Shown here one piece after another: positions 15,273 through 15,305 of a stretch of DNA of 64,000 bases. Origin of the DNA: a plasmid; the NCBI RefSeq assembly GCF_058153355.1, contig NZ_JBLWLY010000002.1. One strand, written 5' to 3'. Numbering within the stretch: position 1 is the first letter of the stretch; each line of letters starts with the position of its first letter. The position numbers and the translations under genes were made by a program. The notes beneath the pieces were generated by a model. It saw only the letters and a list, made by a program, of their open reading frames with translations, was not told the origin of the DNA and did no database searches.

Positions 15273-15305
15273 CTGTCTCTTGATCAGATCTCCTGATCAA
15301 GAGAC
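15273..15305. repeat. IS50 inside-end-like 19-mer (CTGTCTCTTGATCAGATCT) embedded in a 13-bp-arm hairpin
   Basis: GTCTCTTGATCAG / CTGATCAAGAGAC inverted arms with a 5-nt loop, about 60 bp after the ipaH9.8 stop and next to an IS4-family transposase remnant. Confidence 0.55.

Follow-up and report, generated by a model that had tools for sequence, protein, structure and literature searches.

An IS50-type inside end and hairpin downstream of ipaH9.8, very probably the tip of a decayed ISEc13 copy

Introduction

What is the perfect hairpin that follows the ipaH9.8 gene on a plasmid contig (NCBI RefSeq assembly GCF_058153355.1, contig NZ_JBLWLY010000002.1)? We analysed a stretch of 64,000 nucleotides of this contig, hereafter called the window, in which positions 15273–15305 of the plus strand read CTGTCTCTTGATCAGATCTCCTGATCAAGAGAC. 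The first 19 bases (15273–15291), CTGTCTCTTGATCAGATCT, had been likened to the inside end of the insertion sequence (IS) IS50, and the stretch had been considered either as the terminator of ipaH9.8 or as a miniature element made of two abutted IS ends. The analysis described here leaves little doubt that it is the intact tip, on the transposase-gene 3' side, of an ISEc13 copy that has been truncated and has decayed; ISEc13 is an element of the IS50 subgroup of the IS4 family. The feature is therefore of a kind already known, the end of a catalogued IS, and it is inactive here. Within the window it is of little importance except as a marker of plasmid rearrangement history, in which ipaH9.8 appears to have been joined to an old ISEc13 site of F-type plasmids that was hit afterwards by IS100. 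A residual and mildly new point is that an end-proximal hairpin is conserved across the IS50 subgroup.

Identity of the hairpin stretch

The inverted repeat consists of two 13-nt arms, 15275–15287 and 15293–15305, which are 100% complementary and separated by a 5-nt loop (15288–15292). The outer arm corresponds to positions 3–15 of the 19-mer. The perfect arms and the short loop bear out the initial description of a 13-bp-arm inverted repeat holding the 19-mer. The predicted RNA fold has an energy of about −21 kcal/mol on both strands (z = −5.4 and −4.8). Two GATC (Dam) sites lie in the 19-mer (15282–15285 and 15287–15290) and a third is located in the hairpin at 15295–15298. The 19-mer is matched only once in the window when up to three mismatches are allowed, and no match occurred in 100 shuffled sequences. 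An Rfam scan of positions 14900–16000 at a permissive E-value yielded no match.

The sequence that starts with the hairpin aligned with ISEc13 from the very first base. Positions 15273–15882 are 95.3% identical to ISEc13 positions 1–614, beginning exactly at the element boundary, and represent the 3' 610 bp of the element on the minus strand with a decayed C-terminal part of the transposase. In a search of plasmid records, the best matches to this segment were annotated in RefSeq as 'IS4-like element ISEc13 family transposase'; ISEc13 is the name in ISfinder as well. The full-length ISEc13 of plasmid pMAR7 (locus L001, 2502–4051) comprises 1550 bp, starts with CTGTCTCTTGATCAGATCTCCTGATCAAGAGAC and ends with ...GGATTTGTGTATAAGAGACAG, and a copy on an Escherichia fergusonii plasmid has the same ends. 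The 34-nt hairpin stretch is identical in these two full-length copies, as it is throughout L001, L002 and L086–L089. Alignment to IS4-family termini, which had been suggested as a check, thus returned a match, since the ISEc13 terminus carries the same 19-mer and hairpin.

The coding frame agrees with this assignment. When the annotated coding sequence of L001 was mapped onto the window, the native transposase stop codon, TGA, was placed at 15284–15286 on the minus strand, inside the terminal repeat. The intact gene, on the minus strand, encodes a protein with the C-terminus VMKSLDQEI; the loop codons are those for I and E, and the inner arm comprises the codons Q-D-L-S together with one further base, the terminal G of the K codon. 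The intact ISEc13 protein shares 39% identity with the Tn5 transposase (E = 6e-84), and the intact homologue contains the domains Tnp_DNA_bind, DDE_Tnp_1 and Dimer_Tnp_Tn5. The open reading frames (ORFs) of the remnant in the window match NCBIfam transpos_IS4_3 at profile positions 208–292 and 294–391. They are split over two frames by a 4-bp deletion, and a Trp codon has been changed to a stop codon at 15356–15358. An IS4-family transposase C-terminal remnant cut by IS100 had indeed been noticed next to the hairpin; we locate it on the minus strand and the cut at 15882/15883.

Thus, the window shares with ISEc13 95% identity from the exact boundary, the 19-bp repeat, the 34-nt hairpin, the reading frame and the position of the stop codon, but it differs in having only the 3' 610 bp, a frameshift, a nonsense codon, the IS100 cut and no terminus of the outside-end type. 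Neither another piece of ISEc13 nor, with up to three mismatches, a second end of that type was detected in the window. As an active element the copy is incomplete, with only positions 1–614 left, a broken ORF and the second end absent from the window. With its 5' two-thirds removed by IS100, its ORF broken and a partner end absent from the window, this ISEc13 copy is a dead relic that cannot move.

Element boundary and the IS50-type end

Position 15273 is a true element boundary. Related elements have differing flanks, which diverge right after ...GAGACAG, and 9-bp target duplications bound whole elements (CCGCAGGAG in L089 and CCCACAGGG in L090, with agreement at 8/9 positions in L002); together, these observations validate the boundary. 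The IS50 subgroup is characterised by a length of 1350–1550 bp, ends of the form CW------Y---CA-A--W- and direct repeats of 8–9 bp (PMC2266710). The 19-mer fits this end pattern, the reference copy measures 1550 bp, and the duplications in L089 and L090 are 9 bp long. The repeat is adjoined by the gene of a Tn5-type DDE transposase, the 3' end of which reaches into it.

The comparison with IS50 itself made use of the IS50L-neo junction as a query; it was found with at least 99% identity in 230 plasmid records, and the eight matches listed were 100% identical. In Tn5-carrying plasmids, the IS50L boundary directly upstream of aph(3')-IIa is the reverse complement of the 19-mer, AGATCTGATCAAGAGACAG. 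In the Tn5 literature, these 19 bp are the 'inside end' of IS50. The originally stated likeness to the inside end therefore holds at 19/19 bases, and 15273–15291 (plus strand) represents the ISEc13 terminal inverted repeat of the inside-end type. No open paper that prints the 19-mer as the IS50 inside end was found; full-text searches turned up the 19-mer and the ends of its relatives only in primer or vector uses, or not at all.

To what extent the 19-mer points to IS50 was judged from 80 subgroup loci in other genomes, whose transposases share 38–56% amino-acid identity with that of ISEc13. Nearly all of them end in ...GATCAAGAGACAG. The exact 19-mer is present in 18 of the 80, including elements of Photorhabdus and Xenorhabdus and of uncultured gammaproteobacteria, and the other end variants mostly differ at 1–3 positions. 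On the basis of these alignments, the identity with IS50 reflects a deeply conserved end type of the subgroup and not the presence of IS50. IS50 proper (Tn5) is ruled out by the low transposase identity of 39% and by a different subterminal sequence. The IS50 inside end resembles that of ISEc13 in all 19 bases, in the TGA stop codon inside the end and in two overlapping Dam sites, whereas in IS50 the end is followed inward by a sequence of its own (GGGGATCAAGATCTGA...) and the inner inverted arm is lacking. By analogy with Tn5, for which these properties are described in the literature, the 19-mer is presumed to be the site of transposase binding and cleavage, and use of the end is probably Dam-sensitive through its GATC sites.

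The other ISEc13 terminus, of the outside-end type, is CTGTCTCTTATACACAAAT (L001 4033–4051) and is absent from the window. It differs at only 2/19 positions each from the Tn5 outside end and the engineered hyperactive mosaic end, and would presumably be a natural near-mosaic end; both IS50L copies examined in Tn5 plasmids are truncated on the outside-end side.

The hairpin and ipaH9.8

Does the hairpin serve ipaH9.8 in this plasmid? The gene occupies positions 13567–15213 of the plus strand (a listed ORF of 548 amino acids; the annotated Shigella flexneri gene begins three codons later), and the window is 99.3% identical to the annotated ipaH9.8 of S. flexneri plasmids up to position 15227. 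The hairpin is the first strong one 3' of the gene, lying 62 nt past the stop codon with a folding energy of −21 kcal/mol, and the lineage of the window has lost a terminator-like site that is located about 70 nt downstream of ipaH9.8 in plasmid pWR501. Furthermore, a stable stem-loop can block 3' exonucleases even if it lacks a U-tract. On these grounds the hairpin might act as the transcription terminator of ipaH9.8 or stabilise its 3' end, but we consider either function unlikely. The tail after the stem, UUCAUCACC, contains no U-tract, and the stem is AU-rich, with G-C in 5/13 pairs. The hairpin thus lacks the combination of a G+C-rich stem and a directly following U-tract that marks an intrinsic (Rho-independent) terminator. 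A terminator scan left it unflagged and returned two better candidates downstream, at 15732 and 15826.

The distribution of the hairpin points in the same direction. The structure goes with ISEc13 everywhere, sequence matching the ISEc13 end being present in 2464/5426 complete E. coli genomes, and it is absent from other ipaH 3' flanks. Copies downstream of other ipaH genes, which the original prediction had proposed to look for, were not encountered: 0/585 ipaH 3'-flank matches on PLSDB plasmids continue into the ISEc13 end. Judged by these comparisons, the hairpin is not a feature of ipaH genes, which corrects the idea of an ipaH-associated structure, and the proposal of a terminator for ipaH9.8 is not upheld. 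As the hairpin belongs to ISEc13 and not to the ipaH flanks, any terminating or stabilising effect on ipaH9.8 would be incidental.

In S. flexneri plasmids, another region (yacA, ospG) follows ipaH9.8 and has its own terminator-like site. In pWR501 this site reads CGCCGGGCTTCGGCG-GTTTTAC (L085 5311–5400) and is missing from the flank in the window. The ipaH-type 3' flank of the window (plus strand, 15214–15249) is a mosaic, in which similarity to S. flexneri ipaH9.8 extends to 15227 and is followed by similarity to the ipaH7.8/ipaH1 flanks up to about 15255. A second ipaH copy on the minus strand of the window (28510–29400) is 99% identical to the C-terminal half of ipaH9.8 (14336–15226), and its flank diverges 13 bp past the stop codon. 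In the ISEc13 remnant of the Shigella dysenteriae plasmid pSD1_197 (positions 1–879), the inside-end-type tip directly abuts an IS110-family element and has no ipaH neighbour.

Conservation of the hairpin in the IS50 subgroup

In relatives with 71–77% amino-acid identity (from Enterobacterales, Salmonella salamae and Serratia), the 34 nt are unchanged, whereas the coding sequence upstream differs. L090, a relative with 66% amino-acid identity, has one change and a 12-bp stem. Across the subgroup, 31/58 distinct ends form a perfectly paired stem of 8 bp or more that starts at the repeat tip (position 1–3), compared with 0.4% of shuffled controls. These stems, with the core GTCTCTTGA and loops of 5–20 nt, are formed between the tip and a copy of it further upstream. 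The stem is longest, and the loop tightest, in ISEc13.

Codon usage in the inner arm was assessed with all 48 distinct ORFs (median pairwise amino-acid identity of 53%), which were not selected by the motif; an earlier codon test was discarded as circular, because its sequence set had been chosen by the motif itself. Among 76 conserved columns with six-fold-degenerate amino acids, the two most codon-fixed were the Leu (CTT, 27/32) and the Ser (TCT, 29/39) of the inner arm. The codons beside them (Ala, Leu, Gly) vary freely. This suggests that the nucleotides of the inner arm are constrained beyond the requirements of the protein.

Two further observations concern individual lineages. Relatives of the Vibrio/Alteromonas type have a second nucleotide-fixed stretch, CAA ACC ATC CTT (Q-T-I-L; ACC 28/32, CAA 36/38), at alignment columns 494–497 (L017–L062), about 25 nt upstream of the inner arm; it does not occur in ISEc13. 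The remnant tip of pSD1_197 (L091 3001–3040) carries a T-to-G change at end position 17 (CAGAGCTCC), which falls in the loop and leaves the stem intact.

Possible role of the hairpin in active elements

The inverted copy of the tip in the last transposase codons is found in many elements of the IS50 subgroup and most strongly in ISEc13. If it is selected, it may represent a hairpin that regulates the element, a proposal that we make tentatively on the basis of the sequence comparisons. The argument for a selected nucleic-acid structure is the fixation of synonymous sites in lineages with an amino-acid identity of only about 50%. The outer arm would be formed by terminal repeat positions 3–15 with the stop codon, and the inner arm by the last sense codons (K-S-L-D-Q). 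The ORF extends into the terminal repeat, so that a stem-loop at this place would, for lack of other room, have to be built from the repeat tip and the upstream codons. In active elements, the hairpin would then be a selected RNA-level structure, most plausibly either an insulator or a 3'-terminal stem-loop of the transposase transcript. A stem-loop of this kind could set the 3' terminus of the transposase mRNA, or stabilise it, at whatever insertion site. Alternatively, it might act as a barrier against outside transcription crossing the end, or hide the end. We found no description of an inverted tip copy in the transposase codons of IS50-subgroup elements, and a literature search combining IS50, stem-loop and inside end returned nothing.

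Several points weigh against a selected hairpin. The outer arm, as the transposase site, never varies, so that compensatory changes are unobservable and a covariation test of the hairpin is precluded. The inner arm is missing in IS50, in a Photorhabdus clade and in the most distant relatives and is therefore dispensable. Perfect conservation of 34 nt in a relic with 95% identity is not significant alone, as only about 1.6 changes are expected. Moreover, the compared elements are related to each other, and the counts thus overstate the number of independent events. A second site copy on double-stranded DNA predicts the same conservation as a hairpin. Tolerance of G-U pairs cannot single out an RNA strand, since all observed changes are T-to-C or G-to-A transitions at synonymous positions and are confounded with coding constraint.

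Known structures offer partial parallels. Hairpins immediately inside the terminal repeat are also known from IS10 and IS50, where they guard the ends against external transcription, and from terminators located within IS ends; these structures, however, act at the 5' end of the transposase gene, whereas the ISEc13 hairpin lies at the 3' end, is coding and has no T-run. The 3' stem-loops of the repetitive extragenic palindromic (REP) type that stabilise mRNA are similar in being stable stem-loops without a U-tract in the 3' region of a transcript. They differ in that they have no sequence relation to the hairpin, which has no Rfam match and whose stabilising role is hypothetical.

At the opposite, outside-end-type end, most relatives of the IS50 subgroup have a GC-rich hairpin of 12–14 bp directly after the 19-mer. 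Its inner sequence is lineage-specific yet mutually complementary, and a T-run and a conserved TTGAAC come after it. Such a hairpin is seen in the 5' ends of L011–L090, for instance at L035 905–960 and L086 4–60, and is absent from the window; in ISEc13 itself, the T-run is degraded. From its sequence, the structure looks like an inward-facing intrinsic terminator beside a likely −35 box of the transposase promoter. The apparent terminator at this end, which covaries, provides a parallel in support of a selected hairpin at the inside end. For Tn5 relatives, a nucleotide-conserved hairpin at the inside end and its covarying counterpart, the apparent terminator at the opposite end, would be possible cis-regulators of transposition. 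The IS50/Tn5 family is of practical importance as a source of molecular tools. The wider by-product of this analysis is modest.

The constraint on the inner arm could also be explained if this arm were an additional transposase-binding site, inverted and used on double-stranded DNA, that serves as a decoy or regulator in place of a hairpin arm. A conserved inverted copy of the tip is equally expected in that case, and the two site copies overlap in space, so that their binding would be mutually exclusive. We regard such a decoy as improbable, because most relatives copy only positions 3–11, while recognition by the N-terminal domain in the Tn5 structure reaches further inward along the end, and because it is the complementarity to the tip that stays conserved, with loops of 5–20 nt. 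Finally, the original suggestion that two IS ends abut and form a miniature element, which would measure 34 bp, is refuted for practical purposes, although the sequence comes close to the palindrome expected from an inside end overlapping its reverse complement at AGATCT. The inner copy begins with AAG instead of the terminal CTG, lacks end positions 16–19 and is read in frame as the last transposase codons of intact elements; the 34-bp unit is flanked by the 9-bp sequences GGCATAGCC and TTCATCACC, which do not constitute a duplication; and the same hairpin resides inside full-length ISEc13 and relatives, where 9-bp target duplications bound whole elements of 1.49–1.55 kb.

Junction history and insertion sites

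Between the ipaH-type flank and the ISEc13 tip lies a 23-bp segment, AATAAATATCCTCCGGCATAGCC (15250–15272, plus strand), which travels with the ISEc13 insertion site. In many E. coli F-type plasmids, it adjoins an ISEc13 copy with an internal deletion. On the S. salamae chromosome, its neighbour is an element of 73% identity that lies downstream of a sigma-54 activator gene, and the opposite flank is shared there as well. Both site flanks are thus common to E. coli F-type plasmids and S. salamae (L084 2995–3023 and 3979–4010; both flanks in L088), with the same imperfect 9-bp duplication (6/9) around IS interiors that are 73% identical. Either this is an old insertion whose interior was replaced by recombination between ISs, or the site is strongly preferred.

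The relic and its 23-bp flank thus appear to derive from an old, widely inherited ISEc13 site of F-type plasmids. The ipaH9.8 3' flank was subsequently attached to them near AATAAA (15250–15255), and truncation by IS100 came after that. The junction between ipaH and ISEc13 is absent from the public plasmids and complete E. coli genomes in the collections searched.

The truncating IS100 (IS21 family, 1954 bp) extends from 15883 to 17836 on the minus strand and was recognised by its matching terminal repeats and the IstA and IstB ORFs (istA, istB). An IS1-like ORF of the InsA type abuts its far end (17837–18080), and the remainder of ISEc13 is not found there. As the rest of ISEc13 is absent beyond the far end, IS100 did not enter by a simple insertion alone, and further rearrangement followed.

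The insertion sites of some relatives share a feature of their own. The elements in L086, L087, L089 and L090, found in Serratia, in other Enterobacterales and in a metagenome, interrupt REP-like palindromes (CCCTCTCCC...GGGAGAGGG) and are bounded by clean 9-bp duplications, which suggests, at the sequence level, that relatives of the ISEc13 clade prefer such palindromes as targets.
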